From: Raillietiella orientalis
Lineage: Eukaryota
Assembly (NCBI GenBank): GCA_036172245.1
Contig: JAYWIR010000021.1
Location: 1,116,001-1,180,000, forward strand
DNA: 64,000 nt
Reading direction: 5' to 3'
Shown: piece after piece, positions 1 through 63,899 of the stretch
How positions within the stretch are numbered: the first letter of the stretch is position 1
How the letters are laid out: the number at the start of each line of letters is the position of its first letter
Program-made: the position numbers and the translations under genes
Notes under the pieces: model-generated
Seen by the model: the letters and a program-made list of their open reading frames with translations, nothing else
Database searches by the model: none
What the model was told of the DNA's origin: nothing

Positions 1-800
1 TCCCGTCCCCCTATGAGTGTTGTTCGGGTTCTGGGAAGCTTTCCCCTCGGTGGGATTTTGGACAACCAACACGGGCCTGCTACCGCGCCTCGCGAGACCG
101 CTCAGGACTCCGAAGAAACTCTTCCTACATCATTGGGAAGAGGAGGAGCTGGATCCTTCCGCAGCGCGGAAGCTGACCTGCCAGATCGTGGACGTTAGCA
201 AGTCCATCGTGAGATGCAGAGCGACGCGGCTGGGGCACGAAGTCATGCTGAAAGACCTTGCTCAGGGCCAGTAAGAAAGGTGGATCGAATTCCTTGGAAT
301 TTACCAGTAAGGAACTCTGATATCCCGGTGGCTATCACCAACATTTCCATCCTTTCCCGTCTCTACCAGATCACTACCATCTTGCTACTGCGCCACGGCC
401 TCCCTAGAAACGGCTTCTGCGGGAACGATTCCAGGAAAGCGAGTGCTCGGAATCGCGAAAACCTTCCTCCGCACGCGCTTTTGGAATGTTGTCCAATGTG
501 CAGGACTGGAAGCGCCCCTTCAGGGAGCCAATAATCCGGAGATGCCCCCAGGAGATGTCTGTCTCGGAAGAGCGTTCACTTCTTAGGGTTTACCAGATGC
601 TTCTTCCGCGGCCATATTCAGTCACGCTGCGAGCAACGCCTGGTGATCGGCGAAACGGAGGAAGGGCGCGTGACGGTCGGGTCGTTCGCAACCACCACCG
701 CCCTCATGGTCCGACCTGGAACGTGCAACAAAAGAAACCGCTGTGGTCAGACCAACTGGACACCTGGGAACACACCCTATTCACTCGCTCGCGTCCATAG
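1..800 (+). mobile_element. Degenerate RLE-group thumb/C-terminal remnant, truncated by the window start
   Basis: 'KKLFLHH..', 'AEADL', 'IVDVSK', later 'QDWKRPFRE..RRCP..EERSLLRV', in thumb-to-knuckle order. Confidence 0.38.
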
Positions 801-2352
801 CCGGCACGAATCCTCTTCATCACGACCCATCCCATTTCTGTTTACTTGTTTCTTTATTCGATCTGGCTCCTCACCCTCTACTCCCTCCTCGGTTTTGTAC
901 CCACTGAGGGACCTCAGTGGGTGCAAAATCGGAGCCTTCGCTTCCGACTGGCACACGTGGGGACCTTTCCTATTTCTTACTGCGAATGAGGCGCTGTGGA
1001 AATGCCCTCCTCTCGTTTTCCCGGACTGTTCCCTGACTTTCCCAAAATTTATTTGCGCATTTTGAATGGAAGGGCTGGCGATCCGGGACGAGAAGGTTCG
1101 TTGCAAAGGACATCTCGATCGGTCGTCTCCACTTGCGGGCGAAAACCGAAATCGCAGCAGCGCACCTGCGGCGCGATCCGCACGCGCGCCTCTGTTGAAC
1201 GCTTGACCCAGCCTTTGCTGCGGGAGCTCGGCGCCAAATTAAAGGTCAAGTCGGCTTCCCGGTTTCCGGCCCATGCTACATTTGCAGCGACATCTTTATC
1301 GGATTCATCCCTACGGGACAGTTGCTCTTTTTTAAGATCGCCTTATCCTGGGCGGCGGTGGGGAAGATAATTCTTCCGAGGAGGAGTGAGGCACCGATAG
1401 CTGGGGGTACCTAAGGAATGGGACACATAAACGGATAAGTAATTCTGCTCTATTGACTTCTCGCGATATCACATAACGCTTGGATTCGTTTTCCGCCTGT
1501 CCACGTGGTACCTTTATGAAACGAGCACGGCTACTAAGGAGCGGCGATTGGCAGTGCAGCGCTGGCTACTGCGGAGGGTGTCTGGGATCCTCCTGCTGCA
1601 TTTCTGACGCGGGATGCTCGCGGGAAGAGCGGCGCGTGAATGTGGGAAGGATGCGAGAGAGGGTGATCTCGAAGCCAGCAAGCTGTCTGGTGATGAAAAA
1701 TGAGGTGATGTGTTCCAAGAAAGAAAAGGCATGCTGACTGCGACCAAAGCGTCTTAGCGTTTTCTGAGATGAGGAATTCGGACGATCCCCCTATCCGTGA
1801 TGGAGGGAACTGGCTGGCTGGATGCTAGCTGGTTTTCCGGCGCAACATTAGCGACCCCTTAGTTCTGGCAAGTGCAGATAAAGGAGGAGGGAGGAGATCA
1901 TGAAAAATGAGGAGTGCGCTGTGCGCAGCACTGAGGAGGAGGATGGAATGCTCAACTCAAATCGACCGCTCTACCCCTCCTTTACCTTCGCTGGCATGGA
2001 CCATTCGTCAAGGGAGAACAGTTCGAGCAGGCATGTGATCTTCCTCGGCTCGCCGGCTCCTCGATCTGCCACCGTTCCGGGGGGGGGAGGGGGGAAGGGG
2101 AGAAAGTCAATCATACAGTCACAAATTCGTGATGTGCGTTCATCCTCCATGGAAACGTGCTTCCAGTGACGCTGTGGAATTTCTGCGCTCATTGAGCGCC
2201 ACGAAACTGGATGATTCTTCTGGAGACTTAGGGAACTGTTCCCTTTCTTTCTTGGGATGGCTTCGGTTCTGTTATTCCCTTCCGCTAAGTCTCACCGAGT
2301 TGTCTGTTGTCACCCTGAAGTCATGAAACCCTTTGAAACCATTTCGAAAGAT

Positions 2353-2850
2353 CTAGGCAGGCTCTTTCACTGAATCCTCACGAGAGGCCCATGTCTCCTT
2401 GTGAGGATTCCGTGTTGGGGTCTTGCAGTGGAAGTCCTGAATGCTGAGGTCAGCGGACAAGCTTCGTTGAGGCTCGGCGGTTTCTGTCGCTCGGGGAACC
2501 CACCAATTTCTGAAGATGGGGTGGAAAGAACTGAAGGCTGCTGGCAGGAGGGCGACGTGGTGAAAATTTTCCACGAGGAAGCTGGAGATGGGTTGCGTCA
2601 AGTCGAACTCAGAAGGAAGCTTCTCGAGAGATAGCAGGTCTCCTTTTGCGCCTCCAAAGTGACCCCTCGTTCTCTCGGCGGGAGGGCACTTCCAAAAATG
2701 GAGAGAGATTTCTTCCTGAAGAAGGAAAGTTCCTTCCAGAGCAATGAGTTGTCCGAATCCTTCTTTATGTAAACCTATCAGCAAACCCGCTGTTTTCCAG
2801 ATCCTCAATGTACATCTCTCATATGAAGAAGAGTCTTCGACGACGTTCAT
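2353..2850 (-). mobile_element. Possible degenerate RT-end/thumb remnant
   Basis: The 165-aa ORF has 'AGLLIGLHK..TFLLQEEI..SEFDLTQP'. Only loose similarity. Confidence 0.28.
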
Positions 2851-3449
2851 TTCTGTTTTTGTTTGTCAAGAAACCAATGTCCAATGAGGATGCAGGTTTG
2901 AGGAAATTCGCCTGATAGTACGTGCCTTGGAGAATTTCAGTTTATGCGGGAATGCATAAGTTTCTTTTGGGGGTGGGTCAGACCATCATCAACGTGCTCT
3001 GTGCCGCAACTCATATCTGTTGCGTCGACCGAAAGCCTCAAGGGCTGCCTGAGCTGCCCGTCCTCCGTGGAAGCGTATTTGCGTGCTGAATTCCAGAAAA
3101 CTGACAAAAAAAAAAAACCCCCCCTAGGGGATGTGAAAGTCGGTTTTGGTCTTCGGGAAATTTCTCCTCTTTTCAAAAGGTCGAGGACGATTTTCTTGCA
3201 CATGAACTTCATAGCAAGAAATATCAGAAGGAAAGCATCAAATGATTTTCTTTATTGATCGGCATTCGTTCATACCTCAGACCAGCAACATCCAAGATGT
3301 CCACTTGCTCTCTGCCTGTGCATGGACGAATCCACCAGCATAACTTCTGCTCAGGGAACCGGAAAAGAGTCAGGAAATGCGTCTTTTTGTCTCAACCTTA
3401 CTTACGATGGCACTGGCCTTTCCATCGGGGATAATCCTCTTGTGATAAA

Positions 3450-3880
3450 CACCCAGCGTCCGTCAAGTTTTAACTCAGCATATTACTGAGAAACATGCCT
3501 TACCCTCCCCTTGCAGTGCTCTGGACGTGTTCTGGGTTCAGAAGAATTGACGGCCGTTGCGCAGGTCCCGATGAACAAAAACGATGCCAGCTTGCAGCAC
3601 AAGTGCAATCCACAGTCTCCGGGAGCTCACTGATACATGGACGACCGCTTTGGTTCTTCCAAGAGAAAGCTGAGCAACTGATGGAACGTCGAGCACGCTT
3701 CCAGAAGGTGGGCAAAAGACCGCGCTATGCAACAGATCATGGAGGCTCGATCAGCTTTCCGAAGGCAGTCAAAGAAGCAGAAGGAATAAATCTCCAGATT
3801 GGATTTGAAAGCTTCCAGATCATGTTCCAGAATCCGGTCTTACACGTTTATTTCCCATCCATGTTATCCTCTTTTCCTTA
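3450..3880 (+). mobile_element. Degenerate NeSL/Utopia-like thumb/linker remnant
   Basis: 'GPDEQKRCQLAAQVQSTV' and, in another frame at 3682, 'WNVEHASRRW' (W..AR.ASRR-like). Confidence 0.4.
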
Positions 3881-5899
3881 GTTCTCTGATTCCCATCATT
3901 CACGCCTGATCAACACCTTGGAAATTCTTCTGATCGACGCAGCGCATTCTTTCGCGACAGAACGTTCCCATTTGGAGAACGGGAGCAGACGCCGGGGGAA
4001 GAGGGCAGTGCAAGAACGATTGTTCCGTCTGGTGGTTTCCTTGCCACCCGAGCTGAAACTGTTGGTTTGCTGACTGAGCCGCTGCATGCCCGTTCCTCTC
4101 ACTCCCATAAGATGCACTGCGTGTCCAGAAGAAAGTGGGAAACCTCGCGATCGTGGCAGCCGAGGACATCCGGTTTCTCCGGAAAAGATGAACCGAGATT
4201 TTGGGGTTTTCGCTTTGTTCCTGAAACCTTACGTCGTTTTCGGCATTCCCAGAATCACACCGACCTCGGCGCGCCTGCCGCTGGCCTCAGGATAAGAATC
4301 CCTGCAGGCCTGGAATGCAGTCAGGAACACCGCACCGTTGCTCCCTTCCGAATCCGTACGAAGGGAGCGGCGGTGTCTTCCGGTGTCTCGCAGCTCCTTT
4401 TCGATCCTCTCAAATCGTCGTCTGCAGGACATTCGAAAAGAGTTATGCACGCTGCGTTTAGAAACAACCCCCGAAGACAGCGAGCTACCCAAGTTTGGGG
4501 GGAATCCGAAAGAGAAGTGATCCATATATGTATATGTATATATTTGTAAGCAACAAAAAATGAAAAGCGCTTTCGAGAGGATTAAAAGAAAATCAAGGGG
4601 AGCAAACGCTGCATGAAATCTCCAATAAGAATTGCTGAAAAATCGGGGGAGGAAAAAAGCAGGCGTAGGTGTTTGCGGAAACGACTCTTCACTCCGCCGC
4701 CTTCTACTGAGCAACGATACTCTTCTGATTCCTTCCTGGGCGTTTCCCGTTCCCAAGAAGGTGGTCGAAAAGGTCCGAGATGAGGCCGGCAAAGCCCATT
4801 GGCGTTCTGGAGACTTCACTTTGTTCGGAGATGTTTGGTTTTGCCGTTCCGTTGGCAGACAAGGAGGGTCTTAAGCAGGTCCAGACGAGGTGGACGTCCT
4901 TGGTTTACCATTCTCGATAACCGCTCACCTTTCCCTCAATCCCCGCTCCAGAACGACGAACATTTGCTCTTCGAATGGACGAGATGCTTAGTTCGGATAG
5001 ACGGAGGAGAAGACACATTTCCACTCCAGATTAATGAAGCTGGAATTTCCATAAGTCCAATTTCATGCTAAACGGTAGTTTTCAGACGCAGATGACTCCG
5101 GAAGTCGGATGTGATTTTGCTGCTTCCCGTGTTTTCCCTAACCTCAGTTTTTTTTTTTTCTTTCACTTTTCCTCCCCCACCCTCTCCACAGCGAATTGCG
5201 CAGCACAATTTTGCTTCCTCGCGCTGCTAAAAAAAAGTGTCTTTGATGTCTTTTTCCTCTCTCCATTCACGGCACTCATCCAAGAGATCCGTGCCTTCGA
5301 CAGGATGAGTGTCCGGGAGTTTCTTCTTCTTCCCCTTCCGCAAACCAACACTACGGAAGATTCGTGACTTGGGTCTGCTTGATCATATTGATCCGAAGGG
5401 CTGTCCGAAACATTAAATCGTTAATGAAGAAGGATTCTGTAGTTTCTTCCCCGATTCAGACTCTCCTCGATGGGAGGCACGGGACGGGCTTCACTCGAAA
5501 ACATCCGATGATCTTTTATTCCTCCATAAACTCTTCCTTACCAACTTCCGGCGCGGCTTGCTCTCCCGCAGCATCTCCCATCTGAGCCGGACCGAAACGA
5601 TCTCTGGTTTTCCTCCAAACACGCGCGCAGAAATATTCATATGTTTTTCCTGTTTTGTCGCCGCGCTTCTCCGAACACGCGTCAAGCCGCGCCTCCCAAA
5701 ATCCTCTCTTCCCCTGTTTAAAGACTTGTGTTTGCGAATTTGCTTTCTGGTTCCTCCCTGCCATCTGGGGGTGCCGTTCATCCTTTCCGTCTTAAAGGCA
5801 GTTTTCCGTATCGATAATCCTTTCCACGTTTTCGGTGCGCCCTTTCGCAAACATCTTCTGACCTTATTAGATATGTGGTACACATGTTTCATCCGCAGG

Positions 5900-6400
5900 T
5901 TCGTCTTCCGCCGAGATGCGCATCGTCACTTCAGACACCTCGCTTTCCTCAGCTCACTTTCCCGCTTTGGTTCACGACTCGTTTATTGCCCATCATCCTC
6001 GCAAGTGGATAATGATGAGGAATATTCCTCCGCCCGAAACTCGCTGCGCAGGAAGGGTAAACAAGGAAGGAAGGTCTCGTTCGAGAGGGGCGCAAGATGC
6101 GCTTCCATCGAGTGGCTTCTTCCTTCAGCGCCTTTGCTGGACCACCTGCCAAATCGCGGACCAGGCCGCGTCCGGCTCCGCGGGCACCGCCCCGGAGTTC
6201 CCGAAAATTTCGGCGCGGTCCCTTCCCCTCCCGGTCGATCTTTTCCGAGGAGAACGTGCCGCTTCCAACGCTGATGCCCAGCTTCACAAGATGTGCTCAC
6301 CTGGATCCTTTCGGCGTCTTTCCAATAGATGCATCCGAAACTTCCTTCCGGCGTTCTGTCTATTTCCAGACTGCTTAAGAGTTTTCCTTGAGAGTTTCCG
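5900..6400 (+). mobile_element. Possible degenerate RT core remnant
   Basis: 'RGAQDALPSSGFF' (GVxQG.PLS-like) followed by 'APLLDHL..VRLRGH'. Confidence 0.33.
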
Positions 6401-7849
6401 GGATGCGTCGACCGCTCTTCCAGCATCAATCTTTCAGACCAACTTTACCGTTTTCCGATCGAAAGACGACGTGAAACGTACATTCTGTACTCTGTCATTA
6501 GACTGAACGATCGTTAGGTGACGACTCATTCATAAGGGCATATTAATAAGCAATTAATTCTCTCATAACCCTTGAATTCTACGATTGCGCTTAATCGTGT
6601 CGGCATCCATCTCGCAGGTTCAAAGTAAATACAATAAACGAAACGCGTTGAACTGTACGTTTCTAACGAAACATTTATGACGTAACATTTGAGCTTTCGT
6701 GAGCAATTTTTAAAGCATTGAGTTTCAGACGTTTTTTAATCAAGCAGTTTGGACCCAGCTAATTACGAGAGACTGGATTATGCTAATCCAATTTCTAATT
6801 ACTGTTATAATTTATTAATCTTAGACAAAAAGCTTTTGCAGCTAATCAGCGTTTCGCATGCCAGTGAAGAGGCATATCTTGTTCTGAAAACCGCAACCGG
6901 AGGAATGGACCCCGCGCCCTTCAGATTGTTCAGTTGTTCTCTGGAATTGCCCAACGGCGGCTGTGGGTTGCAAAAAGCACACGCACGAAAGGAAGCATAC
7001 GTGTGAAAAGGCAGTACGTGCTTTGCACACGCAGCCTTCCGCGATGTCCCGCACGCTCGCCACGACGTGGACCACCGGATGGACGGTCACTCGCCGCTGG
7101 TGGGCCGCGACGTGCGAAAGAAACTGCCAGAACCCCTTTGCCTCTCTGTCCGATCACTTCGGATGTCTCTCCAGCCCTGAGCGTTTCCGAGGGAGATTCC
7201 TGCTGAAGATCCTGGAAAGATCTTTCAGCAGAGAAGCCAAGAGCAAATGCTTCCTAGATGCTGGATGAAACTGCGAGGGAGTACGGAAAGCACGCTGCAG
7301 AACGAAACATAAGGTCAGAACAAGTCCGGAGGAAAGGTCACTCACTCCCCGTTTCGGATTCAGGCGAAGAGGCGGGCAGATGATTCGCATGTCTTCATAA
7401 CGCAGATTCACGAATCATTCTTGCTGCGGATGAGGGACACCGTTCATGGCAACGTAACTCCTCGTACTCTTGCTGCTTGCTGCTTCGCTTCTGGAAGGAA
7501 AAGCAGCTGAGATGAGAAATGGAGACCTCTTCAACCTGCACATTTTTGGGGGGTCTCTTTCTCGTGGACATTCCTCCATTGTGAATTCCCTTTCTTTCTC
7601 TCCGGTTATTTGACTCTCTCCACCCGAGCATCTTCTGCTCGATTCTTGTTCCAAATGTGCAAATGGACGCAGACGTGGGATGCGTTTCGGGACAGGAGAT
7701 GCTTTACGTCCTGACAAAAATGCAAGCCATCGCCATTCTTCGTTCGGAATTTGCAGGGATCTTCACGCTCAGCAGAGAAGCAAACGAAGCGAACAGGGCA
7801 GTTGCTGAAATCCCAGAAGTCCCAGAAATGTCCCAGAAGGATGGAGAGC

Positions 7850-8420
7850 GCCAATCAAGTCGAAACTTCCGTGGGAGCTCTCGTAACTCCGCGCGAAGAG
7901 AGAGGACCGAGGACGTATCTCGTGGTCTCGAAGCGGAACGCTTTGCCACCATCCTGAGCTCAAGAAATTCCCATCACGCGGCGGCGAAAAGAAGCCCAGG
8001 GGTTCCCTCCCGTGCCCTGGCAGTGCATCGGAAGGAGGCATAAGAAGCGGAGAAGAAGGGAAGAATACTTCGACCCCGCCGACCAACAGCTGGACGTTGC
8101 GAAGGGCATCCGCGGTGTCGGCAGGGACGTGTCTCCTGGTGCGAAAGTACGATGAGGAGCAACCACACCGGGAAGGAAGGAAAAGGGAATAAAAAAGGAG
8201 AGGCTGGAAGAGATGGAGGCGAAGAAGATCTGGATCCTGGAAACTGCCGACGAGGTGCTGGACTTTGGCTGAGCCCTCGTGACAGGCGGACGGCGTGTGA
8301 TCGAAATCGAGGATACGGTCCGAATGTTCGAGTGACATCATTTTCCTTGGGAAAACGACACATCTGCACTTCACTGAAGCAACGATTACCAACGACGGGA
8401 GGCTGGTTACACGTCATCTG
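7850..8420 (+). mobile_element. Possible degenerate RT core remnant
   Basis: 'RFATILSSR', 'KIWILETADEV' (LAYADD-like position) and 'TSFSLGKRHI', in order. Confidence 0.35.
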
Positions 8421-9699
8421 CTCCTACGTACCTTTCGATTCATTTATGTTGACTATAAATCGAGAAAGGCCATCAGAAAGCAATTAAGTTAATAAAAAAA
8501 AATAACTGGCAGCTCCCGTTTCCAAAAATGGCCGTACAAGGAAATGCAAAGTCCGAAGTGGATCCTTAAGGATGATGATTCCTCCTGCCTGAAGGTTTGT
8601 TTCCTTTCGGCAGTATAAACATTTCGGATGACTAATAAATGAACGAAGCTCAGTGGATGCTCCACGAATGGCCTCCTCTGACTTCTTTGTAGCTGAAAGC
8701 GAACATCGCGCAAATAATTAACGGATAAACGGCTCATTTTGGATGATATCTACTCTGTTTCATGTCGTGCACTGGAAGCTGGCTTCTTTCCTGCTCATAA
8801 ACACCATCTAACAATCTCGCCAAACGTCCTTTCCGTTCGCCGTGCAGGAATCGGGGAGTCGACATGGCATCAGTGAGATCTTAATGAAAGTTTCCTCAAT
8901 AGCTTGGAACAGATTGAGTTTCCGTAATAAAGATTCAGAAATCCGCGTAAGATGAAAACCTTCCATAACAAACCGTCGGCGATAAGATGGAAGAACCGGA
9001 AGATCGAAGCTCTTTCCCGGCGTACAACCGACGCACAGACGTGTACCTAGCCAGTCTCTCAACCACCGTCATCAATCCATCATCAAAGATTAAAGGCACT
9101 TCGCTTGCAGATCCGGGAAAGAAATCACCGAAACTGAAAGCGATATGCGAATGGCACCGAAAGAGCCCCGAAGAGTGAAATTTGAGTCTCGAGAATCGCG
9201 CCCATCCCCGAATCGCGTCTCCCGAGAAGGATGGAAAGGTGCGGACGGAAGGGAGAGCCGCACTGTAGGGAAAGCCGCTTCGTCCCGCGGACGACGTCCA
9301 CCCGCATCCGAGAGAGATGAGCATTGCGGAACTGCACTGGACCGAGGCATATCCTCTCTTGGAACGCGGAGGAGATCGTGACGTCCTCCAGGAGACCGGC
9401 GTTCCATACCGATAAGGTCCGCAAACTCCCTCCGAGCGATGGTGAAAATTTGGCAGACCGTTCGGAAAAGATAAGGCAGCGCTCTCCCTGATGTCTGCGA
9501 ACAATTCCCGAGCTGCTGAATAACGCAGGGAGCGCGGAGCACGCGTGTTCCGATTGCACGCAATGAGAAATGTGTAAATCCTTAGAGATGCGACGATGGT
9601 TAACAGTTGGATAGTTTCTTTAAGTCGCCTCGGAAATTGCTGGTTCTCCTAGAACAGCGTGTTCCTATTAATGGCGCGAATTATTGATGGAAGGCTAAC

Positions 9700-11650: not shown

Positions 11651-11827
11651 TCAAGAAGCTTGAAACCTGCCTTCTGAGCCAAGATTTCGGAGCGCACCCT
11701 CCCCCGAGGTTAGCTCGGAGAAAAGCTATCCGCCTCTCACCTTGGAAAGTGTGAACTTTTCACAGGATGCGGGAAAACGCATCTTGGAGATGCTGGGCGC
11801 GCCCTGAAGAAGGTCACGAAATTTAAC

Positions 11828-12494
11828 TCAAATTTGGTGCAGATGATGCACGTTCGGAAGGTCCTTCGCAAGCCCCCAGCCACCTGACCACCCAGTTCGC
11901 AGCCTCGCCGGCAGTTGCCCGTCCTGCCCGGCGACCCACGGCGTACGGCCAGAGCATGCTTCCGCTCTGCTCCACGTGGCCGCGTACCTCTTCGTCTTCT
12001 TCTTGGCGGCTGTCCGCCGTTGCGCTGTCAGTCGCGACTTCTGCCAGCGACCACGTCTGCGCTCTTCGGATCACTGAGCCACCAGCAGGGAGTGCTCCCG
12101 AGGGAGCCGTTGCTCCAGGGCGGACGTAAAGGAGGGGGCGCTTTCGCGTGTTTGGTCTTCCGGTACCGCCGCCGAGTTCGCAGACGGGAGGGCAGCGCAA
12201 GAGAGAGGACCCCACATTCGTTGTCGAGAACCGGGTCCGGACGAAGTGTTGGGTCGCTTCCCAGGCGTGGTTGGCTGCCCTGCTCCTGGTGGCTTAGGTC
12301 GAGCGGACGGTCGTGCCTGTTGACGATGATGTCGGAGTTGGGCGCGCGGAGACTCAGGACGTGCGCCAAGGTGTCTTCCCCGGGCGAGCACATTCGGTGC
12401 GCCCCTCTTCCTGCGGTCGTCTGCGGAGCGGCCAGAGGATTGCGTCTTCTGAGGAGGCAGCCGGAGAATCGCAGGGTGGTATCTTGGATACGGG
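11828..12494. repeat. Copy 1 of a ~670-bp near-identical direct duplication (partner 18090-18759)
   Basis: Same sequence at offset 6262 and near-identical ORF translations. Differences seen: G/A at 11836/18098, A/G at 12200/18462, and a 3-nt indel near the right end. Confidence 0.97.
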
Positions 12495-14000
12495 CAGTGG
12501 CTGGACGCACGATGTCGTCCAGCGCAGGTCACGGCTTCCCCTTGATCTGGGAGCTTCCCAATGAAGGAGCGGGTGGCCACGCCTCTTTGCGCTGAAGTGT
12601 GTCCACCTCAGAGCAAAGTTTGCCTCTCGAAAGGATGCCTGCGAAAAGCGAACTCTCCTGTTGTGGTTTCCGGTTCGCCGTCTTTGAGGATCCAGCGCTC
12701 TTGGATTCGTCCGGATGCTTGGAGACGTACCGTCCCAGCAGGCGGCAGCAGTACGTCCCGGAGGTCACACGCAAGTCACGGATGCACGGCTGACATTTTT
12801 TCCCTCAGTTCGTCCACGCTTCGCCGTGCTTCGTGGACGATGGTTTTTCGCGAGTGTTGGGTGATGTGGCGGCGCGATGGCGCGGTGTTGTGAGTGACGC
12901 GAGACGAATCTGCACGGACGAATCCACCACAGCGGACTTGCGCGCGCACGAACGTGTGCGCGGGAAAGCAGGAAAGAGGATCAGCTGATCCGAGTCACCG
13001 CGTGCAAGGAGCGTTCGGCGCTGACGTCTTGGGGAACGCGCTGCTGGATCGCACGCGAGCTGCGAGGATGCAGTTCCCTCAGCAAGCCGATTCCTCTCCG
13101 GTCTCCATTGGCGGAAGCAGCTCTTGCTGGGAGTTCCGCGGAGACCTCGGAAGCGCTGGCTGAGAGACACCTCAGCTGGATTGGGAGGCGTGCGGCTTCG
13201 CAAACACGTGACGGACACCTACGGCGGCTGCTCGGAGGAACGGAAATTACTTTATTGCGGCATTAGTCCACCTGTCTTTGTTCTCACGATCCTGACGATT
13301 CGCTTCCCATAATTCAATATTGACCGGACTCACGTTTCGTTGTTTGAATGGTCAGCTCCGAGTAAACTCTGAAACACGAGTCGTTCTCGTCAATCAGAAC
13401 TTCAAGAAACGAGCTTTTAATGGGGAAATGTGGACAGACGGATAGACCCTGCCGGGGTCTCCGGATTCAAGTTCCTCCGTGTATGATGTAGGGCGCGTAG
13501 GGTGCAATTACTTTATGCATACGAATGAGTTCATGTGGGGGAGGGGAAGAAGGGAGAGAGACGCACTGCATCCGCATTCGAAAGATGACGAACGGATGAT
13601 TTCGGATGCGCCCGTTCCAGAATGAAATTCATTCACAGATGCTGAGTGGAATCCCTTGGAAATCCCGATGAACGTCCTCACGATGTCCACGAACGCCATC
13701 GGCTCATTTCAGCCGAGGGTCCGATCCTGCTTGCTTCGTGAAAAGCATGAGCAATGAGGTGGTAATGCCCTGTGCAGCATGTCGTGGACACGTTCCACGT
13801 CGTTGCTAGGAGGCTGATCAGGCTGATCCTATGCATCGTCGGAGGAGAATCCAACGTGGGTCTCCGTAACTTCCAACTTCCATCAGCTTCCGGAAACGCA
13901 TCTTCGCCGCTCTGCTGGCAGAGCCCACCCGCTTTCGTTTTCTCGATCACAGGAACACTTCCAGACTCGGCACACAATCATCCTCAAAGACGGCCATGGT
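11850..14000 (-). mobile_element. Degenerate RLE-type non-LTR retrotransposon (NeSL/Utopia-like): RT, thumb, CCHC knuckle and RLE remnants
   Basis: Motifs occur in the expected order on the minus strand across frameshifts. RT-like: 'CCTGHYHLIAHAFHEASRIG' then 'AFVDIVRTF' (~13680-13780). Thumb: 'AVVDSS' (~12930). Then 'KLPDQGEAVTCAGRHRASSH' (ORF 12071..12580). Then 'RMCSPGEDTLAHVL..IIVNRHD..LRPDPV..GSLGS..ADVVAGRSRD' (ORF 12028..12510), matching the knuckle, RHD and PD nuclease layout of R2/NeSL-group elements. Confidence 0.8.
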
Positions 14001-17000: not shown

Positions 17001-17369
17001 CTTGACCCTCGATCAAAGCGGCGCTTCGTGCTCGGAGCGTCCGGGAAGGAGGCGCGGGGAGGGCAGGGAAGGAAACTTCCCCGCAGCCGCGGCTGAATTT
17101 TCCCGTTGCCTCGAGCGAGCACAGATCGACGCGACGGGTCCACCCACCCCACGTTTCGTTGGAGAGGGAGCGTTCCTTGGGCTTCCCGGATGCGGCGGGG
17201 AGTCCACAGTGAACACCCAGCAAGCAGTGGCGGGGCACCGGGTCCTGTCGCCATCCACTGCACCACGAACGTGCCAAGATGCCGGTGCGCAAGCTGGAAA
17301 CATCCAACCTGGCAACGGAGTGGAGTGGAGCAAACAAAAGGAAAACAAAGTGAAAATAAGTAGATAAAT

Positions 17370-17386
17370 ACACACACACACACACA
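17370..17386. repeat. (AC)n microsatellite
   Basis: Directly visible. Confidence 0.9.
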
Positions 17387-17599
17387 AACCTGGAGGGGGT
17401 TTCGGGAAGGGAACACCGCCCTAGTGGAAGCTGGAGCATTCCAGGAGACGAGAACGCGTTCCCAAATTCTTCCGGGCGCGCGTGCGTTTGGCGGTTCTCC
17501 CTCGTCCTCTCTCCTCGCACCGATCTTCTCTCACGCACTTCACGTGAAGGTGGACCTGCTGGACTGCGCCGCGCACTTCGGACTCCGGCACGGCGAGGT

Positions 17600-18085
17600 C
17601 ATCGTGCCAGTTGGACTTGGCTACCCAGGGTTGAGATTAGCACTCCGCACGACGGGTGTCCTTCCCGGGTGTCCCTTGCAGTCTGGAAACGGCTCCTCCT
17701 GCTCAACGGCCACACAGAAGACCTCTTTTGAAGGAGAATCGCAGTGGCACAGTAAGATAGGGCGAGATGCACGTGACGCAGTGTTCGGTGGTGTGCCGGT
17801 GAGCGTTCGGTTTCGTGCATTTCCTGCCTCGAAGGAGGGAATGAGAGCGCGAAGGAATGCCTAAGGAAGGAAGGCCTTGAGGATCCCTGGCTGCCTCTGA
17901 GAGAAGCGACCTTCCTGGTGAAACTTTCTGCCCACTTCCGACAGCACCTTGCTCTCATTCCGTCCACATGGATTCTTCTTTCAAGAATCACTAGCACGCG
18001 ACCAGTGAAAAGGCCGTAGATAGCTGCTGCAAAAGAAGGCATCCCTCTCGACCTTCGAAGTAGGAGTTCAGCTGCTCCGCAAATT
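17600..18085 (-). mobile_element. Possible degenerate RT N-terminal remnant directly downstream of duplicated copy 2
   Basis: 'AIYGLFTGRVL' (IYKLF-like) and 'GILKAF'. Weak. Confidence 0.3.
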
Positions 18086-18089
18086 GAAT

Positions 18090-18759
18090 TCAAATTTAGT
18101 GCAGATGATGCACGTTCGGAAGGTCCTTCGCAAGCCCCCAGCCACCTGACCACCCAGTTCGCAGCCTCGCCGGCAGTTGCCCGTCCTGCCCGGCGACCCA
18201 CGGCGTACGGCCAGAGCATGCTTCCGCTCTGCTCCACGTGGCCGCGTACCTCTTCGTCTTCTTCTTGGCGGCTGTCCGCCGTTGCGCTGTCAGTCGCGAC
18301 TTCTGCCAGCGACCACGTCTGCGCTCTTCGGATCACTGAGCCACCAGCAGGGAGTGCTCCCGAGGGAGCCGTTGCTCCAGGGCGGACGTAAAGGAGGGGG
18401 CGCTTTCGCGTGTTTGGTCTTCCGGTACCGCCGCCGAGTTCGCAGACGGGAGGGCAGCGCAGGAGAGAGGACCCCACATTCGTTGTCGAGAACCGGGTCC
18501 GGACGAAGTGTTGGGTCGCTTCCCAGGCGTGGTTGGCTGCCCTGCTCCTGGTGGCTTAGGTCGAGCGGACGGTCGTGCCTGTTGACGATGATGTCGGAGT
18601 TGGGCGCGCGGAGACTCAGGACGTGCGCCAAGGTGTCTTCCCCGGGCGAGCACATTCGGTGCGCCCCTCTTCCTGCGGTCGTCTGCGGAGCGGCCAGAGG
18701 ATTGCGTCTTCTGAGGAGGCAGCCGGAGAATCGCAGGGTGGTGGTATCTTGGATACGGG
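18090..18759 (-). mobile_element. Copy 2 of the duplication, carrying only the knuckle/RLE 3' part of the NeSL/Utopia-like element
   Basis: ORF 18290..18655 'MCSPGEDTLAHVL..RHD..LRPDPV..GSLGS..SRD' is near-identical to 12028..12510. Confidence 0.88.
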
Positions 18760-18899
18760 AAGTGCTTTCCCCGGCCCCGCTCGCGGTAGTGTGAATTTAT
18801 TCAACCAACGGAACGATGCAAACAAACGAACAAACACTGTCGCTTTGGAGATCGGTGGTTGCTTGTCATGTCCGTGCTGCCCGCACTGTACCGTTCTAG

Positions 18900-20100: not shown

Positions 20101-20109
20101 GATGACGCT

Positions 20110-42900: not shown

Positions 42901-42935
42901 ACACATACACACGCACGCACGCACACACACACACA

Positions 42936-42986
<51 letters not shown>

Positions 42987-49100: not shown

Positions 49101-49449
49101 TGGGCGTTACCTTCCTCTCCGGGGTCTCGCCCCAAGGAGCGAGAGATCCTCCGCTCCTCCTCCGTTCTCCCAGCCTGGCACCCGCAGGCGCTTGGCCATC
49201 GATCCCTCCCAGTGACTTGTCTCCTGGGGACGATGGGGACTCGACAAACAGAGCAGGAGGTTTCCTCGTTCCCGTTTTCCGTCTCAACGTCTGGACCCAC
49301 TCGACGATATATTCTTTCAGGAAACCCCGGACTCGAGGAACCCCTTCGGTGAAAGTTTCAGCAAAGGTCCTAAACGGCCGTGGACAGTTGATGACCCGAA
49401 GGCATCGCACCGCCTGCGTAGGAGGCCGTGCGACTGCGGCGATCTCCGC

Positions 49450-50830
49450 GATTGACACCGACCGTCGAGGGTTCTAATCCTTGAGTGGAGGAGCAACTCC
49501 AGAAGAATGGGTGATGCGTCGTGAGTTTCGAGTCTTCCTCAATGTGGCGCTGGTTGTCCTCGAGTGGCTTCGGGTGCGGCACTCGTGGAAGCCGGAAATC
49601 CCCGGATGCCCCTGTTGACTGACCAGGACTGGAAGTTGACCCTCCGAGGTCCTTCCGTGGATCAAGGAGTCCTTCTGAGTTCTCCTCCCCCCTTCCAGTT
49701 GTGAAAATGGAGCCGTCTCCCCCTTGGAGGGACCCTCCATCGCGTGCCATGGAGCTAGTCGATACCACCATTGGGGGGCTGCCTCTCCAGAGTGTCAAGA
49801 AGCGCGCTGCTCCCTTCGGGGAGCGCCCTTTAGAGAAATCGGGAAGCATCCCTTCGTGGTTCGTCTTCAGAGGAGGAGGAAACAGGGAGGGTTTCCTCCG
49901 GAGAATAAATTCCAGGAGCGGATCCTTTCCGAGTTCCCTCCGGAGAAGAAACGGGAGCGCCCCCCACAAACTGGAGGATCCCTCTGGAGAGAACAAGGAG
50001 AAGGATCCCTTAGGGATTCCCCTCCCAATCGCAAGAGGAACGGACTGTTCCTCCGGAGCCCTCCTGGACTCATACGCACGGGGTAACTGACTCTCCACTC
50101 TGCCGACAAAGGAGCACCAGCACTCGTCTCAGGAGTCTCAAGACCATGAGATTCGGTAAACAACGAAGCCCTGAGGGAACCGAAGATCCCTAAGCAATGG
50201 ACATTAGGAAGGAAATGGCGTGCTCCAACCGCTCGCGCCACTCCTGGACCTACTGGAGGATCGGTTTGGGTTGCAGGCTGGGGTGAAGGAGCCCTCGAGT
50301 GCCTCCGACCTCGAGTGGAAGACGAAATGGGGAGGACGGAGAAGCAGCAGAGAGAGTGGAGCGCTCCTACGTCACTGGTTGTCGTTCCTGGCGCGCCATC
50401 TGTAAAAGCAGCACGAAGAAACCTTTCGTGCGGATCCTTGAACTCTGGATGGATGCAGAGGACGGAGAGGCGACGAAGTCAGAAGTGAAGGGACGTGAGC
50501 ATCGCATCCATGAGCCCCCGTAAGTGCTTTTTCTTTCATGGTTTTGCACGGAGGTGCATTTCTTCCTCTTCTTGTTTTCCTCGGCAGGTTAGAGGTCATC
50601 AGCCCTCCCATCCCACTTCACCTTGCGAAGTCCTCTTGAATGGCAATGCCCCTTCTCCATGTCTCCCGCTGATCCTTTTTCGCTCCAGATGCAGCGACTG
50701 CGGGTATGGTTGGGGCTTTCCTTACATGCCCTTCCACCATTTCTTCCTCACCTCGGTTTTCTTCCAGCTGCCGGATGAAGAGACCGTCGAACGGACAAAT
50801 CTGAAAGTGCACGGGTCCGCCTAAGTCTTC
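49450..50830 (-). mobile_element. Degenerate RLE-group RT/thumb remnant
   Basis: 'TKGFFVLLLQMARQERQPVT..TLSAASPS' (RT 2-3-like) and 'TDPPVGPGVARA' (resembling the approach to GVxQG). Block 50178-50443 is homologous to 52821-53092. Confidence 0.45.
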
Positions 50831-53322: not shown

Positions 53323-53341
53323 GTGTGTGTGTGTGTGTGTT
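53323..53341. repeat. (GT)n microsatellite
   Basis: Directly visible. Confidence 0.9.
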
Positions 53342-55050: not shown

Positions 55051-55189
55051 AACAAATCCGAGTGGAAGGTGGCTGTTAGATATTCCTCCCCCCCTCCCCT
55101 TCTGCAAAGGGATCAACTTTTTCCCTATTCACGTGTAAGTGACTTCATTCTCAACACGGAGCGTTGCCATAGCTCTCGATTATTCTTGT

Positions 55190-57029: not shown

Positions 57030-57700
57030 CTACGCGAGAGGGTGACAACGTCAGCTGTTCATCAGCTTGCGGATGCCTTGGATATTTGGTGTTCCAGTAA
57101 GAACGGATCATCCCCAGGTTTAGATTGCTTCAGTTGGATCTCCAGACTGTCAACTACGGACTGTTGGAATGTTTGGGGAACTTGTTGACTCTTCTCAGAG
57201 TTTGCCTATTCTGTCCAGGAGCATAGATGGTTGGATTCCTAACTATAGGAGGAATCGATCGCTGCCTTCCCTTCTCCCTGGTGCAAGGTCCGGCTCCAGA
57301 TTCGAATCTGTCCCTGGGACAGGCTACCTGGAAGCTCCTGGCTACCAGCATTCCAGCTCTCTTGATGCGAATCTCCAGCTCTTCATGTCTTCGTTGAAGC
57401 TATCCAGAACTTCAATCCAGTACTTGCAGTTCCAAGATAAAGATCTAGGATGATGTCCCGAACCGTGTGTCCAACATGCATTCCTGCTATGCTGTGTATC
57501 CATGCACCAATCATGCGACTAGCGAGTTTGGCGTCCGTGAGAGAGTCCCCAGTTCCCGTGGAACTTCACCATTCTTTGGATCCCTTGATCCAACTGCTAA
57601 CGCCCGGACCAATAGCTTCAACCCCTGGAATAAGATATCAGGGCCGTTCTTTGCTGTATCTCCTCCAACACTGCCTCTGACGTTCCGATGGGACAGCAGA
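57030..57700 (-). mobile_element. Degenerate NeSL/Utopia-like RLE/C-terminal remnant
   Basis: DNA 57255-57395 is a diverged reverse complement of 60288-60435 (the RLE core). Minus strand reads 'WIHSIA', 'LEPDL', then 'IRKLM' and, after a frameshift, 'ADVVTLSRS'. Confidence 0.55.
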
Positions 57701-58099
57701 CAGCAGGGACAGAGATTTGATTCTTCTCTGAAAGTGGCAGGGCCTGATTGGAGTTTGAGCCGACTTCTGGGATAGATTGGATCCAGGTGGGACAGCAAGC
57801 CTCCGCGAGAACCGTCCTCTTCCTCACCCTTAGGAGCTATCCTCGGCTAGCGATGTTCAAGAAATAGGATCGGACGTCGTTTGCAAACTCGTCAAAACAC
57901 GCATTCAACCCACCTAACGGGGCTGCGCACGGGTGAATGCGCGCCGACAGGTGAAAGGGGCGACTCGGCTTACTCTGCTCACCCGAAGAGCTCCGCGATG
58001 AGTAGCCGCTTCAAGCTTTTCATCTCTCCGGAAGCGCGAGCGATGAAGTGATGAGAAGATCCATGAGGAGCGGTCTTCACCGACACCTCAGCGACTCGG

Positions 58100-58830
58100 A
58101 AGAACGAACGATCATTCGTGCTGAGGCCAAGGGGGATGTTTCGAAGGTGACAGCCAGAAGTCCTGAGATGTTGACTCGTCCCCGTGAATCCACGGAAACC
58201 ATCCAGGAACGTCTTCCCATGCGGTGACCAGAACTGGTTCTCCTTTGCTTAACCTCCTTCTCCCTCGTCCAGCATCCGACGCAACCTGGGCATCTAGTGA
58301 GAGCACACCAGCTGGGTCGCTTCCCGAACGTCCAGGCACACAGATCCACGAAGCCAAGTGATCAATGACCCCAGGCATAGTGCCGGGAAACCAAGCAAGC
58401 ACGCTCGGCCGGTTCCCAGCGGCCGGCCGGCCGAGGGTCCAGAAGGCGGAGGGTGATCCCGTCCGACATAAGTCCCTACCTCGACAGCAACACCGCCCAC
58501 TCTTGAACGCCTGCTGCCGACCAGACCTACGACAGCGACGGCGAAGCTGGACAGATCGAGAAAGCGTGGAAGCTGGTGGGAGACGTGGAAAATCCTCGAC
58601 CCCCACCCCTCCCCGCCGCATTTCCTTTCGTGAACCTGAAATCATAGCAATGGAAAAGGAGGAGCACCTGAACGCGTACAGCCCGCCCTCCCTCCCACGC
58701 GTGTCGGTCGCTCCCTTCTACTGAGAACAAGCTTAGAGAGATCTGGGAGTGCTCCTATGGCATCTCGCAGGTTGCGGCGCATCCCGAAACTGGTGAACGC
58801 ACCCATTTGCTCCAGAGACTTCCAGGAAAG
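58100..58830 (+). mobile_element. Degenerate RLE/C-terminal retroelement remnant in the left arm of the large inverted repeat (mirrored at ~61823-62553, minus strand)
   Basis: 'CCRPDL..ISFREPEIIAMEKEEHLNAYSP..VSVAPF' (ORF 58365..58724), followed by 'PKLVNAPICSRDF', similar to the terminal RKL..SD.I..SRD motif. Confidence 0.5.
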
Positions 58831-59579
58831 AATGCCCTCTGGGCCTTACATGAAAGGAGCGCAACCCACAGTCAGTAAGATCGTTGGTCTTTGTCTTTTC
58901 CCCGTACACTCCTACTATTAGGAAAACCGAAAGGAAACAATGAGTCGCAAAGAACTGTCCTTTGCACCATCACATTCCGCACGCGCAGATGGAGCCGCTC
59001 ACGACTTGCCCCCTCTTATCCTTCCTGCCCCGGCGCGACCGGGTGAGAATACTCTTCCACTGCCCGCGACTTCATCGACACTTCCAGCATGGCCACCGAA
59101 TGTCTGCATTCTCGGATCTTCAGCACGAATTTGGTCCAAAAGTATCGTGAAGACGAAGAAACACCGAAACGAAATTTTTCCAGATCCAGAGGAATTCGAA
59201 AATAGAGAACGGAAAGCAAATGACTGATGGGTGACACTCATTCAAAGCCCACCCTAAGGTGCATTGCGTTTCCATCTCTTGTTTTCCCTCTCATTTCAGA
59301 AGATACGAAGCCACTGCATCCCTCTGAATGAGTGTGCTGCTTGATCGGATGGTGGTGCTTTCGCGGTGGCCGCCTATCAGCAGCTTCTACTCGAACGGAT
59401 GGAATGGCAAGGCGGTTTTAACAGAGTCCTCAATGAGGTGCCCGGAAAACCCTCGCTCTCCTGGACGTATATACGAATACCGACGGGACAGTGACACAAG
59501 TCGGCCTTTCCGGCCCCGGTCGGTGCCTGGCTGGGGGACCCCAACTCCCATGACCCCCGTGTCGCTTCTTTGACCCGGT

Positions 59580-60620
59580 CGGCCACATTCCTCCCCGTTC
59601 GAGATCACTGTGGCCCACGCCGAATGCGATGAAGAGGGAGTTTCTCTCGGCGGCGGTCGCCTCGCGCGCCAGGCAGATGCGGCTGCGGTGCGCGCCGCTT
59701 CTTGCAGGCGCCGCCCGAGTGGGCGGTAGGCTTGGTGAGCGACAGCGTCCGTGAAGCGGCAATGGGAAAATCGACAAGGCATTTCCAGCACCCCTTTCGC
59801 CCATCATGAGATGGATGCTGACTATGGCGACATGGTGCACGGTACATGAGGTTGCTTCATGCAATGAAGGAAGTTTCCTTGGTAGTAATGCTGAGAATGT
59901 AAACGGAAGTCGAAAACGAGTTTCCCACGCAAGATGAAGCTGGGAGACTGACACCTCGACAGGAACACCGTTCACTCTTGAACGTCTGCTGCACGTTTGG
60001 GAAGCTTCGCGTCTGACATGAACTTGACGAACATCAACCCCCGTCCTGCGCACGGTTTCACGCACGGCACTTCTGATCAGGAAGAATTTCAAGGGAAGAC
60101 CGCGTCCTGCATTGGGCAGGGCACTTCGCATTCCACGGTGAACACCTCAGCTTTGAGGACTACAAAGTTTTTTCGTTGCAGCACTACTGGTTTCGAGGGC
60201 GCTGCCCACCAGGAATGGCGTCGATCGCGGATGCAAGAGGCAATGAGAGGAATCAGCAGGATCACCGTGGCAACAAGCAATCCATGATCAATGAAGACAA
60301 GAAGAGCTGTTGACTCGGATCAAGAGCGCTGGAATGCCGGTAGCGACGAGCTTCAAACCAGCCTCTGTCCCAGGGAAGATTCGAATCGGGAGCCGGACTT
60401 TGCTTCAGGGAGAAGGGAAGGCAATCGCCATCGATCTCGCGTATCCCCTTTGGGTACTCAGCAACGGCACTACAAGAGCCCGGAGGAGCACACGAAAAGG
60501 AAATCACGTGCCAGAAAACTGAGCACTCCCAGGATGCATGTATGATGCATCGAATAGGTCACCGTCCACGATGAAGGTCCCTCAGGACTCGCGATCTTCC
60601 ACGAGGGTAAGCCTAGGCCG
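59580..60620 (+). mobile_element. Degenerate NeSL/Utopia-like thumb-to-RLE remnant in the spacer of the large inverted repeat
   Basis: 'LARQADAAAVRAA' and 'VSDSVREAA' (thumb-like), 'DQEEFQGKTASCIG..SH' (PDQGK-like), and 'REPDF' followed by 'KAIAIDLAYP' (PD..D nuclease core), in the expected order. Confidence 0.6.
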
Positions 60621-60699
60621 AAGAGGGCGCATTCAAATAATCGCATATTCCTGAGTAGGTATCGGAGGGTAAATTTTCGCTTCCGGACCTCTCTGGGAG

Positions 60700-61100
60700 T
60701 CAGCTGAGGAGATCACAGGAGACACGAGGATGACACCACTGCCTAGCAACCCTATGATGTCATACGCAGGCATACTGAACCACGATGGCGGTATGCCTGC
60801 GCAAGACATCCACCATGCTCTTCTTATGGCCGTCCACTCCTCGCTCGCTCTTTGTCATTTGATGCAGATCTTTTGGTTAGTGTCGTTTGAAACTGAGCAC
60901 GCCCTCCTACGGAAAGAGGCCCGAAGGAGAGGATCCTGATGTCTCATGAGAATCCCCGAGGCATTCGGCAGGATAAAGGTCCAAAATGAAAGGTCCATAA
61001 GCCTTTTAGTCCGCAAACCCAAAGAAAGAAGTAGAGGTTCACAAGCTGCTGGACATCCTCCTGGTGTAAGAGCTTGCACGCGACCGTCTTACACATGCGA
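60700..61100 (-). mobile_element. Possible degenerate RT N-terminal remnant
   Basis: 'LTPGGCPAACEPLLLS..ASFRRRACSVSN' loosely follows L.K.G...RPI.L / GF...GC. Weak. Confidence 0.3.
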
Positions 61101-62674
61101 GGAAAAAAATTTTTCTGCGAAGAGAAAAGTCACTCGGATGGGAAATTCATTGACGTCATCACTGTCCCGTCGGTATTCGTATATACGTCCAGGAGAGCGA
61201 GGGTTTTCCGGGCACCTCATTGAGGACTCTGTTAAAACCGCCTTGCCATTCCATCCGTTCGAGTAGAAGCTGCTGATAGGCGGCCACCGCGAAAGCACCA
61301 CCATCCGATCAAGCAGCACACTCATTCAGAGGGATGCAGTGGCTTCGTATCTTCTGAAATGAGAGGGAAAACAAGAGATGGAAACGCAATGCACCTTAGG
61401 GTGGGCTTTGAATGAGTGTCACCCATCAGTCATTTGCTTTCCGTTCTCTATTTTCGAATTCCTCTGGATCTGGAAAAATTTCGTTTCGGTGTTTCTTCGT
61501 CTTCACGATACTTTTGGACCAAATTCGTGCTGAAGATCCGAGAATGCAGACATTCGGTGGCCATGCTGGAAGTGTCGATGAAGTCGCGGGCAGTGGAAGA
61601 GTATTCTCACCCGGTCGCGCCGGGGCAGGAAGGATAAGAGGGGGCAAGTCGTGAGCGGCTCCATCTGCGCGTGCGGAATGTGATGGTGCAAAGGACAGTT
61701 CTTTGCGACTCATTGTTTCCTTTCGGTTTTCCTAATAGTAGGAGTGTACGGGGAAAAGACAAAGACCAACGATCTTACTGACTGTGGGTTGCGCTCCTTT
61801 CATGTAAGGCCCAGAGGGCATTCTTTCCTGGAAGTCTCTGGAGCAAATGGGTGCGTTCACCAGTTTCGGGATGCGCCGCAACCTGCGAGATGCCATAGGA
61901 GCACTCCCAGATCTCTCTAAGCTTGTTCTCAGTAGAAGGGAGCGACCGACACGCGTGGGAGGGAGGGCGGGCTGTACGCGTTCAGGTGCTCCTCCTTTTC
62001 CATTGCTATGATTTCAGGTTCACGAAAGGAAATGCGGCGGGGAGGGGTGGGGGTCGAGGATTTTCCACGTCTCCCACCAGCTTCCACGCTTTCTCGATCT
62101 GTCCAGCTTCGCCGTCGCTGTCGTAGGTCTGGTCGGCAGCAGGCGTTCAAGAGTGGGCGGTGTTGCTGTCGAGGTAGGGACTTATGTCGGACGGGATCAC
62201 CCTCCGCCTTCTGGACCCTCGCCCGGCCGGCCGCTGGGAACCGGCCGAGCGTGCTTGCTTGGTTTCCCGGCACTATGCCTGGGGTCATTGATCACTTGGC
62301 TTCGTGGATCTGTGTGCCTGGACGTTCGGGAAGCGACCCAGCTGGTGTGCTCTCACTAGATGCCCAGGTTGCGTCGGATGCTGGACGAGGGAGAAGGAGG
62401 TTAAGCAAAGGAGAACCAGTTCTGGTCACCGCATGGGAAGACGTTCCTGGATGGTTTCCGTGGATTCACGGGGACGAGTCAACATCTCAGGACTTCTGGC
62501 TGTCACCTTCGAAACATCCCCCTTGGCCTCAGCACGAATGATCGTTCGTTCTTCCGAGTCGCTGAGGTGTCGGTGAAGACCGCTCCTCATGGATCTTCTC
62601 ATCACTTCATCGCTCGCGCTTCCGGAGAGATGAAAAGCTTGAAGCGGCTACTCATCGCGGAGCTCTCCGGGTGA

Positions 62675-62715
62675 GAAGAACGGATGACAGATGCAAGATC
62701 TGTCATCCGTTCTTC
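62675..62715. repeat. Perfect hairpin, 18-bp stem and 5-nt loop, abutting the outer end of the large inverted repeat
   Basis: GAAGAACGGATGACAGAT-GCAAG-ATCTGTCATCCGTTCTTC. Confidence 0.97.
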
Positions 62716-63899
62716 CTACCCTCTGTCTTCTGTCTTAAAGTGTGCATGTCCATCACAGCTAATGTACAAAGCCCAAATTCCAATTTCTGTAGACTTTTAG
62801 AGTGTACGCAATGACTGAAATCAAAGTGAATTTGCGAATGAACTCTGACGCTCCTCCCTCAGGGTGGTCGGATTTCCTCGGTTTAGCTGTCTTTAGCTGC
62901 TTTTTCCCCTGAAGACCGCCATTTTCTCACAGGTGGACTGTGACCACGGGCTTCCCAAATTTTTCAGGAAGCTGCAGAAAGTCAGCAGGTTTCCCCCCAC
63001 AGGCCGGGTGGCTTCCATTTTTGGAACCTCCACGCAAACAGCGGAAAGGGAAAACTGAAGAAAAAACGTCCTAGAAGAGGCAAAAGCACACAGGGACTGC
63101 AAGTGCATTCGGAACGTTGCCATGGGGAGGAGGTGAGGCCGAGAGAGGGGGGGGAGGGAGGAATGTTCCAACAAGCCGGTGTTTCCCGATTCCTGTGTCC
63201 CCTAAGGACTCTTTCTGGCTCCCTCCTCCTTCGGGCACTCGGCGCTCGAGCCACGTGGATTTTTTCTTCGATTCATTCTTCGTGGCGAGTTGGTTGCAGA
63301 ACCACTGAGTGGTCTCTAATCGTCCACAGCCTATTCCCTTTCGGGCTGCTGTTGGCAGCAAACAAATTTCCCTGCCCTTGGAGTCATTTAGCACGTGATC
63401 ATCTGCTTCTAAAATTTGGAAATCCGTTGTTGACGCAGTTCATTTCCAAATGAAGAGGAAGGCTGCTTTCCGTTGTTTTTCTTTCCTCCAAGACATTTGC
63501 AAATAAGCATTTATCTCAAGCAAACAAAGGATTAAGAGTAAGTAGGCTTTTTCTCGGGAGGAAGCGCAGGACCATTCATTTCACCCGTGTGATCAGAAGC
63601 ATCCTATCGTATCTCAGCAGCCCGATTATCTAAAAGGCATCGAAGACCTCGAGTTATCTTGGAAGTCAAGGTCTCACGTACTTCCGAAACAGCTGGATGG
63701 GAAGCCACTGGAACCACTCTGCATTCTTCACAACAACTCAACGAGCGCCTCTATTTAGACAGCAGCACATGGAGATAAAACAGATAACTGGTCCGTCGCA
63801 AGGAAGACGAAGTCCCTTCTCGTGATCCTGAGCATGAGGAACCATATCCCCGTTTTGCTCCTTTTATTCCCAAGTCTTCGTCGGGATCGATTTCCAGAT

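Follow-up and report, generated by a model that had tools for sequence, protein, structure and literature searches.

What occupies a 64-kb stretch of the Raillietiella orientalis genome in which pieces of a retrotransposon protein recur on both strands, and does the locus itself or the genome around it account for them? We addressed this question for positions 1116001-1180000 of contig JAYWIR010000021.1 (C21; the whole 64-kb stretch is called the window, and coordinates are counted from its first base), part of a 210-Mb assembly of 491 contigs. An earlier note, made from the sequence alone, had described the window as a near-continuous graveyard of one group of long interspersed elements (LINEs) with a restriction-like endonuclease (RLE), of the NeSL/Utopia type. 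We find eight firm fossils of Utopia in the window, and consider it probable that they are old, dead copies from a genome-wide scatter of one Utopia lineage, clade A, whose local excess was raised by local duplication. Taken alone, the window is unremarkable debris; what is unusual is the Utopia radiation across the genome, of which it is an ordinary sample.

The open reading frames (ORFs) of the window could not be used as queries because they are too decayed: the best of them (12031-12528, minus strand) retrieved none of 1,544 candidates in the protein database and nothing in the PDB, and its best Atlas match stood at 0.82. The references therefore come from the genome itself. Searching it with Pfam RVT_1 returned 3,358 reverse transcriptase (RT) candidates, and the 30 loci fetched were all Tx1/L1-like elements of the apurinic/apyrimidinic endonuclease (APE) type. 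A genome search with U2 small nuclear RNA gave 46 matches, through which RLE elements that retain long open frames were reached; one of them, L061 (924 aa), is an intact relative that carries YADD, PDQG, RHN and RPD and that, among solved structures, matches R2 proteins best (E 1.6e-65; L1, E 3e-18). Reference column alignments were built from 50 further loci retrieved with the L061 C-terminus. A FastTree phylogeny of the C-terminal part split the elements of this genome into clade A, with most of the U2-flanked copies, and clade B; they group (support 0.78) beside tick, aphid, spider and crayfish proteins in a tree built without Repbase-named Utopia, NeSL, HERO, R4 or R5 and including two proteins (P0043 and P0034) from species with published Utopia. 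Arthropods supply most of the nearest named Utopia-like proteins, which are 34-42% identical. Placement of the window fossils used profile scores alone, outside the tree.

For detection we used a frameshift-aware profile of clade-A Utopia proteins (846 columns) with codon emissions and a local background, scored by Viterbi and by summing over paths (forward), and calibrated on reversed and Markov controls. The firm cut-off was set at 32 bits, at which 11 control sequences of 64 kb gave a mean of 0.18 matches and a maximum of one. The local background replaced a single global one, with which an initial codon profile was discarded, as controls outscored the window in most settings. Detection improved each time the profile moved closer to the lineage. 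Simpler searches recovered little: plain hmmsearch with 121 Utopia-like proteins reached a best i-E of 0.005, only at 12.3 and 18.6 kb, and plain tblastn with seven Utopia ORFs or ORF pieces from this genome found nothing in the window below E 0.05. Single-protein profiles (best 35 bits, L110) named no nearest subfamily for the window pieces. A DNA profile recovered four of the eight firm segments at E ≤ 0.012, with no match at E ≤ 0.5 in reversed controls, although the match at 12 kb is inflated, an 82% paralogue of that piece having been in the training set.

The eight segments at or above 32 bits lie four on the plus and four on the minus strand and cover 4,126 bp, or 6.4% of the window; being above control level with a profile from the same genome, they support the assignment to Utopia/NeSL made in the earlier note. 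The strongest (12131-12820, minus; columns 535-780; 61 bits forward, 68 Viterbi, four frameshifts) runs from the thumb/linker through PDQG and the zinc knuckle to the start of the RLE and has DNA matches to seven clade-A loci; its 82% paralogue is found on the same contig, 90 kb upstream. The piece at 18081-18764 (minus; zinc knuckle/RLE part; 37 bits at 18390-18764) is, from self-BLAST and its junctions, a 98.8% local copy of 11819-12499 and not an independent insertion. Two further fossils on the plus strand hold the RLE domain: one extends to the C-terminus (26278-26742; columns 685-846; 43 bits forward, 48 Viterbi; DNA profile E 2e-4; aligned core 26350-26726), and the other (30922-31323; columns 693-830; 34 bits forward, 36 Viterbi; aligned core 31051-31287) was missed by the DNA profile.

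The four remaining pieces lie within 3.2 kb as two head-to-head pairs, 57453-58207 and 59437-60578. The first joins a zinc knuckle/RLE segment reaching the C-terminus (57446-58053, minus; 55 bits forward, 59 Viterbi; DNA profile E 7e-8; core 57453-57885) to a post-RT segment (57711-58207, plus; columns 405-570; 41 bits; DNA match to L111, E 4e-4). This arrangement fits a 5'-inverted, twin-primed insertion, and the plus-strand segment is possibly the inverted 5' part of the same insertion as its partner; twin-primed 5' inversion is known from L1, not from RLE elements. The second pair consists of the weakest member of the firm set (59437-60011, minus; columns 566-766; 32 bits forward, 30 Viterbi) and a plus-strand fossil (59978-60578; columns 572-796; 40 bits forward, 34 Viterbi) with an RLE-domain piece at 60090-60450, of which 60288-60435 has an inverted local paralogue (83%, self-BLAST) at 57254-57397.

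Seven of the eight firm pieces fall in the C-terminal third of the protein and none includes the RT core, which is what 5'-truncated LINE copies would give; the window yielded no 5' part of Utopia. Aligned to the profile, its pieces show the Utopia hallmark of a C-terminal zinc knuckle and RLE following the RT, and the clade-A profile outscores that of clade B for both the 12-kb piece (61 vs 36 bits) and the 57.4-kb piece (55 vs 32). The copies are old: about one third of residues match the profile, each piece carries one to six frameshifts, and the best BLASTN matches between the window and 57 Utopia loci are 44-85 bp at 73-82%. No young insertion of any sampled family is present in the window.

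Beyond the window, Utopia is abundant. Searching the genome with the L061 C-terminus gave 1,215 candidates, of which 121 were scored, with 127 matches on about 50 contigs (counted by hand), and the random sample described below extrapolates to about 4,000 detectable fossils genome-wide (95% range 1,500-9,200), or 1-2% of bases. Protein identity among the elements of this genome is 35-82%. Of the 46 U2 matches, 20 were examined, and in every one the U2 sequence starts at nt 39, preceded by an A-rich tail; 10 have the end of an RLE ORF just upstream. This is the Utopia 3' junction published by Kojima and Jurka (2015; PMC4640811). The intact U2 site pattern has two matches in the assembly. Among the 50 distinct 3' ends left when four duplicates are dropped from 54 rows, U2 comes next in three, antisense 28S ribosomal DNA (rDNA) in eight, and neither in the rest, one of the ends (L059) having been chosen because it adjoins U2. 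In clade A, U2 from nt 39 follows three of 11 ends, and in L104, L111 and L114 the AATAAA tail is equally far from the end of the ORF (147-151 nt) but leads into non-U2 DNA. The suggestion in the earlier note of a lineage that lost target specificity and expanded massively is supported, in the form of relaxed specificity and strong expansion, for the whole genome and not for this window.

Further regularities accompany these junctions. In all 20 U2 matches (L038-L057, on many contigs) nt 1-38 are missing; many have 100-270 nt of 3' flank in common, and in five or six another partial U2 follows about 200 nt downstream in inverted orientation. The pattern points to disrupted U2 units having been dispersed, or to a U2 array that is collapsed. 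The clade-B elements L061, L064, L076, L079, L082, L090, L091 and L096 (contigs C81, C83, C31, C33 and C72) have an AATAAA-type tail followed by antisense 28S rDNA at one site; this junction is partial in L071 and L072, and the source elements share 63-82% protein identity with L061.

On balance, we lean slightly towards a history in which Utopia, once a low-copy resident of U2, spread to become a major dispersed LINE of this genome, with thousands of copies making up 1-2% of the DNA; one branch would have kept U2, a sister branch would have moved to one exact antisense 28S rDNA site, and the window would represent an old stratum. If this is true, loss, retention and switch of endonuclease specificity occurred in one radiation, with long open frames left in which to map the residues responsible.

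No target gene is visible in the window, in agreement with the earlier note: Rfam, BLASTN and a tail profile from the same lineage found no U2 there, the last of these recovering, out of 20 U2 pieces planted, 19 when substitution was 20%, 14 at 30% and 4 at 40%; no U2 or U2-flank remnant came up in the window or in its sampled flanks. The absence bears on the possibility that the window was an ancient U2 array, or an array of another lost target repeat, that site-specific Utopia filled and that has since decayed and rearranged where it stood. Such an origin would suit pieces belonging to a U2-associated clade in a genome where decayed junctions at nt 39 occur on many contigs, but against it stand the lack of U2 and U2-flank remnants in the window and its sampled flanks, the mixed orientation of the fragments, their irregular spacing and the lack of any DNA common to separate fragments. 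We consider it unlikely. Copies that lack a U2 junction, as those in the window do, are allowed for weakly specific Utopia families (PMC4640811).

How unusual is the density of these fossils? As background, we applied the same profile and cut-off to 30 loci of 10 kb (300 kb) at round coordinates. Firm matches numbered eight in the 64-kb window, five in the 200 kb of 20 loci on other contigs (one in the reversed sequences) and one in the 100 kb of 10 other C21 loci; the 50-kb flanks held none on the left and three on the right. The comparison with the genome average proposed in the earlier note thus places the window 3-6 times above the sampled loci rather than level with them.

Several observations weigh against the explanation that we favour, a genome-wide scatter raised by duplication. 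Uncorrected, eight matches in 64 kb against six in the 300 kb of background give p=0.001, and the difference persists (about five vs five events, p=0.019) when duplicates and clusters are collapsed; the eight matches reduce to about five events because the piece at 18 kb duplicates the one at 12 kb and four pieces form one cluster. The background itself rests on 30 loci picked at round coordinates, a local cause could still lie behind the excess, and most U2 remnants with 40% decay would escape detection. The roughly 85% of the window that is without assignment could be Utopia decayed beyond detection, or 5' halves outside the profile. We take the local excess to be genuine yet modest. Among about 3,300 possible windows of equal size, p=0.019 is unremarkable.

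Local duplication is evident in the window. Self-BLAST identified two inverted duplications, one at 25068-26300 with 363-bp arms 99.7% identical and no full copy elsewhere in the genome search, and one at 57974-62679 with 1,521-bp arms 99.8% identical, only local matches in the genome search, and two of the Utopia fossils in its spacer. Older pairs in unassigned DNA (21870-21987/24611-24725, 50174-50443/52817-53092 and 50649-50966/52083-52351) are 80-88% identical. Genome DNA searches with window pieces, using a tool that skips common words, returned almost only C21 copies within about 120 kb, plus one 66-bp match on C22. The 200-kb region contains six pairs of 0.36-1.5 kb at 98.5-99.8% identity and a graded series of older pairs whose identity falls as low as 67%. 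In seven near-identical pairs, one of them from a random locus (L143:2479-9329), differences concentrate at the ends (17 in 280 terminal bases vs 23 in 6,173 inner bases); homology stops at the ends, and chance extension would give a mismatch-bearing end in 8.6% of cases. Template switching via imperfect microhomology and conversion of the middles would both fit, and assembly error is a further conceivable source of the duplications.

The process that we favour would begin with a clade-A endonuclease that still favours the U2 site yet often cuts elsewhere. Such loose cutting would have produced thousands of copies genome-wide by target-primed reverse transcription, the established LINE mechanism. 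The window copies would have been 5'-truncated and dead on arrival, never under selection, and would then have decayed; we infer both that these particular copies inserted off target and that they did so by target-primed reverse transcription. Their local excess would represent the upper tail of the genome-wide scatter, increased by short duplications (0.1-1.5 kb, in either orientation) copying nearby dead DNA.

The window has a GC content of 49-68% per 2 kb, with TpA depleted and CpG not, and sits inside a GC-rich domain of at least 200 kb; sampled loci (L119-L158) span 0.34-0.67 per 10 kb genome-wide. Rfam found nothing above gathering score (at E ≤ 1, 11 matches, nine of them on one simple repeat), ARAGORN found no gene, and Pfam gave no domain above cut-off in the 45 of 214 window ORFs of at least 120 aa that were scanned, a scan that short host exons could escape. 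About 8 kb (12%) of the window is assigned overall. As part of the same probable account, we regard the window as neutral, GC-rich, apparently gene-poor DNA holding dead retroelements of at least three kinds.

The retroelements other than Utopia run counter to the view of a single group: Tx1/L1-type pieces and a short interspersed element (SINE)-like repeat cover about 3.9 kb, about as much as the firm Utopia set. The 3' part of an APE-type Tx1/L1-like LINE, not of an RLE element, lies at 18781-19492 (minus; tblastn E 3e-14; 94-110 bits). An older Tx1/L1-like family, family B, contributes four pieces (1.27 kb), comprising a 3' part at 38944-39551 (plus; nhmmer E 5e-49) and pieces at 133-358 (plus; E 3e-6), 17306-17422 (minus; E 5e-3) and 26978-27295 (plus; E 3e-9); 38.9-39.7 kb had been a candidate for a Utopia 5' region and was rejected as belonging to this type. 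The SINE-like repeat, a high-copy unit of about 750 bp with a tRNA-type head (A and B boxes read by eye) and an A-rich tail, is present twice on the plus strand (19814-20766 and 49251-50215; 1.9 kb; profile from 22 copies). Compared with Utopia and Tx1 3' ends, its tail matched only SINE copies, and no partner LINE was found. In 200 kb of random loci the repeat gives 17 matches and 3.5% of bases; window coverage (SINE 3.0 vs 3.5%; family B 2.0 vs 1.7%) equals that of the random sample. Elsewhere in the genome, a young Tx1/L1-like family (L065 and L066 on C71, and L004-L033) is arranged head to tail in arrays, its units spaced about 5.5 kb apart, and has ORFs reaching 1,810 codons.

The whole window might instead be a continuous Utopia pile decayed to recognizable islands, close to the near-continuous occupation that the earlier note had described. 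Weak matches do exceed expectation, with 29 segments at 24 bits or more vs 8.1 in controls, and, at 25 bits, 21 vs 8 in the reversed window and 23 vs 3.7 in Markov and reversed controls; the gain in detection as the profile approached the lineage points the same way. Yet all 29 together cover only 9,773 bp (15%), many with inconsistent profile columns, other families are interleaved, and the 5' regions of five clade-A loci matched only the SINE and Tx1 pieces. With coverage of 6-15%, occupation of most of the 64 kb does not stand, and the note's count of about 20 segments is close to a fair upper range of perhaps 13-20 real pieces, of which eight are firm. Its recurring motifs are found in order (W..GR.ASRR-like, PDQG, TL.HVL, RHD and RPD) in the profile alignment at 12199-12736 (minus). 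Most short motifs, however, occur at chance level (window vs control: WRP 17 vs 17.0, ASRR 17 vs 17.4, RPD 17 vs 21.0, RH[DN] 10 vs 10.2, LP.RA 10 vs 11.0), and the exact forms ETL.HVL, W..AR.ASRR and RKL..DV..SR do not occur in the window. Only ADD[LIV] (7 vs 1.4), an excess that speaks for a pile, and [ED]TL.HVL (2 vs 0, one being the duplicate) exceed chance. Reading short motifs in GC-rich six-frame translations thus found the right family and overstated its coverage several-fold. We judge a continuous pile improbable, slightly more so than a lost U2 array; both keep some probability because so much of the window is without assignment.

The earlier note had also proposed that the locus is a trap, resembling a PIWI-interacting RNA (piRNA) cluster, that collects Utopia fragments and silences the family. 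Such clusters contain transposable element (TE) fragments in gene-poor DNA, give rise to abundant uniquely mapping piRNAs, and have high TE density including recent insertions of active families, and to guide silencing they need recent or near-identical TE sequence. The raised density, the TE fragments on both strands, the lack of Pfam domains in the ORFs scanned and the inverted repeats, which could yield double-stranded RNA, would all suit a trap, but we regard it as very unlikely, because recognizable TE content is low, no young copy is present in a genome with 3,358 RT candidates and many long open frames, the fragments are too diverged from young families to guide silencing, SINE and family-B densities equal background, firm matches are absent from the left flank and number three in the right, and part of the excess was made by local duplication. 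Nor is there the strand bias of a uni-strand cluster; dual-strand clusters need none.

The value of the window is that of a pointer. RLE retrotransposons are under development as site-specific insertion tools (PMC13580325), and what sets or relaxes their target choice could be compared directly in a genome where one Utopia radiation has U2-faithful, promiscuous and 28S-antisense branches. We found no invertebrate Utopia expansion of comparable size in the literature, although coverage of subscription journals and Repbase reports was thin, making this weak evidence of novelty.

Several known systems offer comparisons. R2NS-1_SMed and R2NS-1_CSi (PMC5035012) and BLAG of Blattella (PMC7650587), non-specific R2 derivatives, are likewise RLE LINEs that lost target specificity, in line with the published statement that all target-specific clades include non-specific families; those elements, however, are young families of the R2 clade with a 28S origin, whereas the window pieces are ancient fossils. 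The clade-B sister family outside the window resembles planarian LIN24_SM and LIN26_SM (R5/LIN branch of the NeSL clade; PMC4640811) in lying antisense in the same 28S region, but its 3' junction is about 70 nt apart from theirs and it nests among Utopia-like proteins. Utopia as defined in the literature has N-terminal zinc fingers and no Myb domain (for Myb, PMC13188248). According to Kojima and Jurka (2015; PMC4640811), the Utopia families of oomycetes and wasps are strict; those of crocodilians, turtles and some ants are weakly specific and have left old copies off target, and the parts covered give no copy number of the present size. The elements described here share with those weakly specific families an RT-zinc knuckle-RLE protein, the U2 nt 39 junction in part of the clade and old copies outside U2, and differ from them in their thousands of detectable fossils and in a deep in-genome radiation where strict, loose and retargeted branches coexist.

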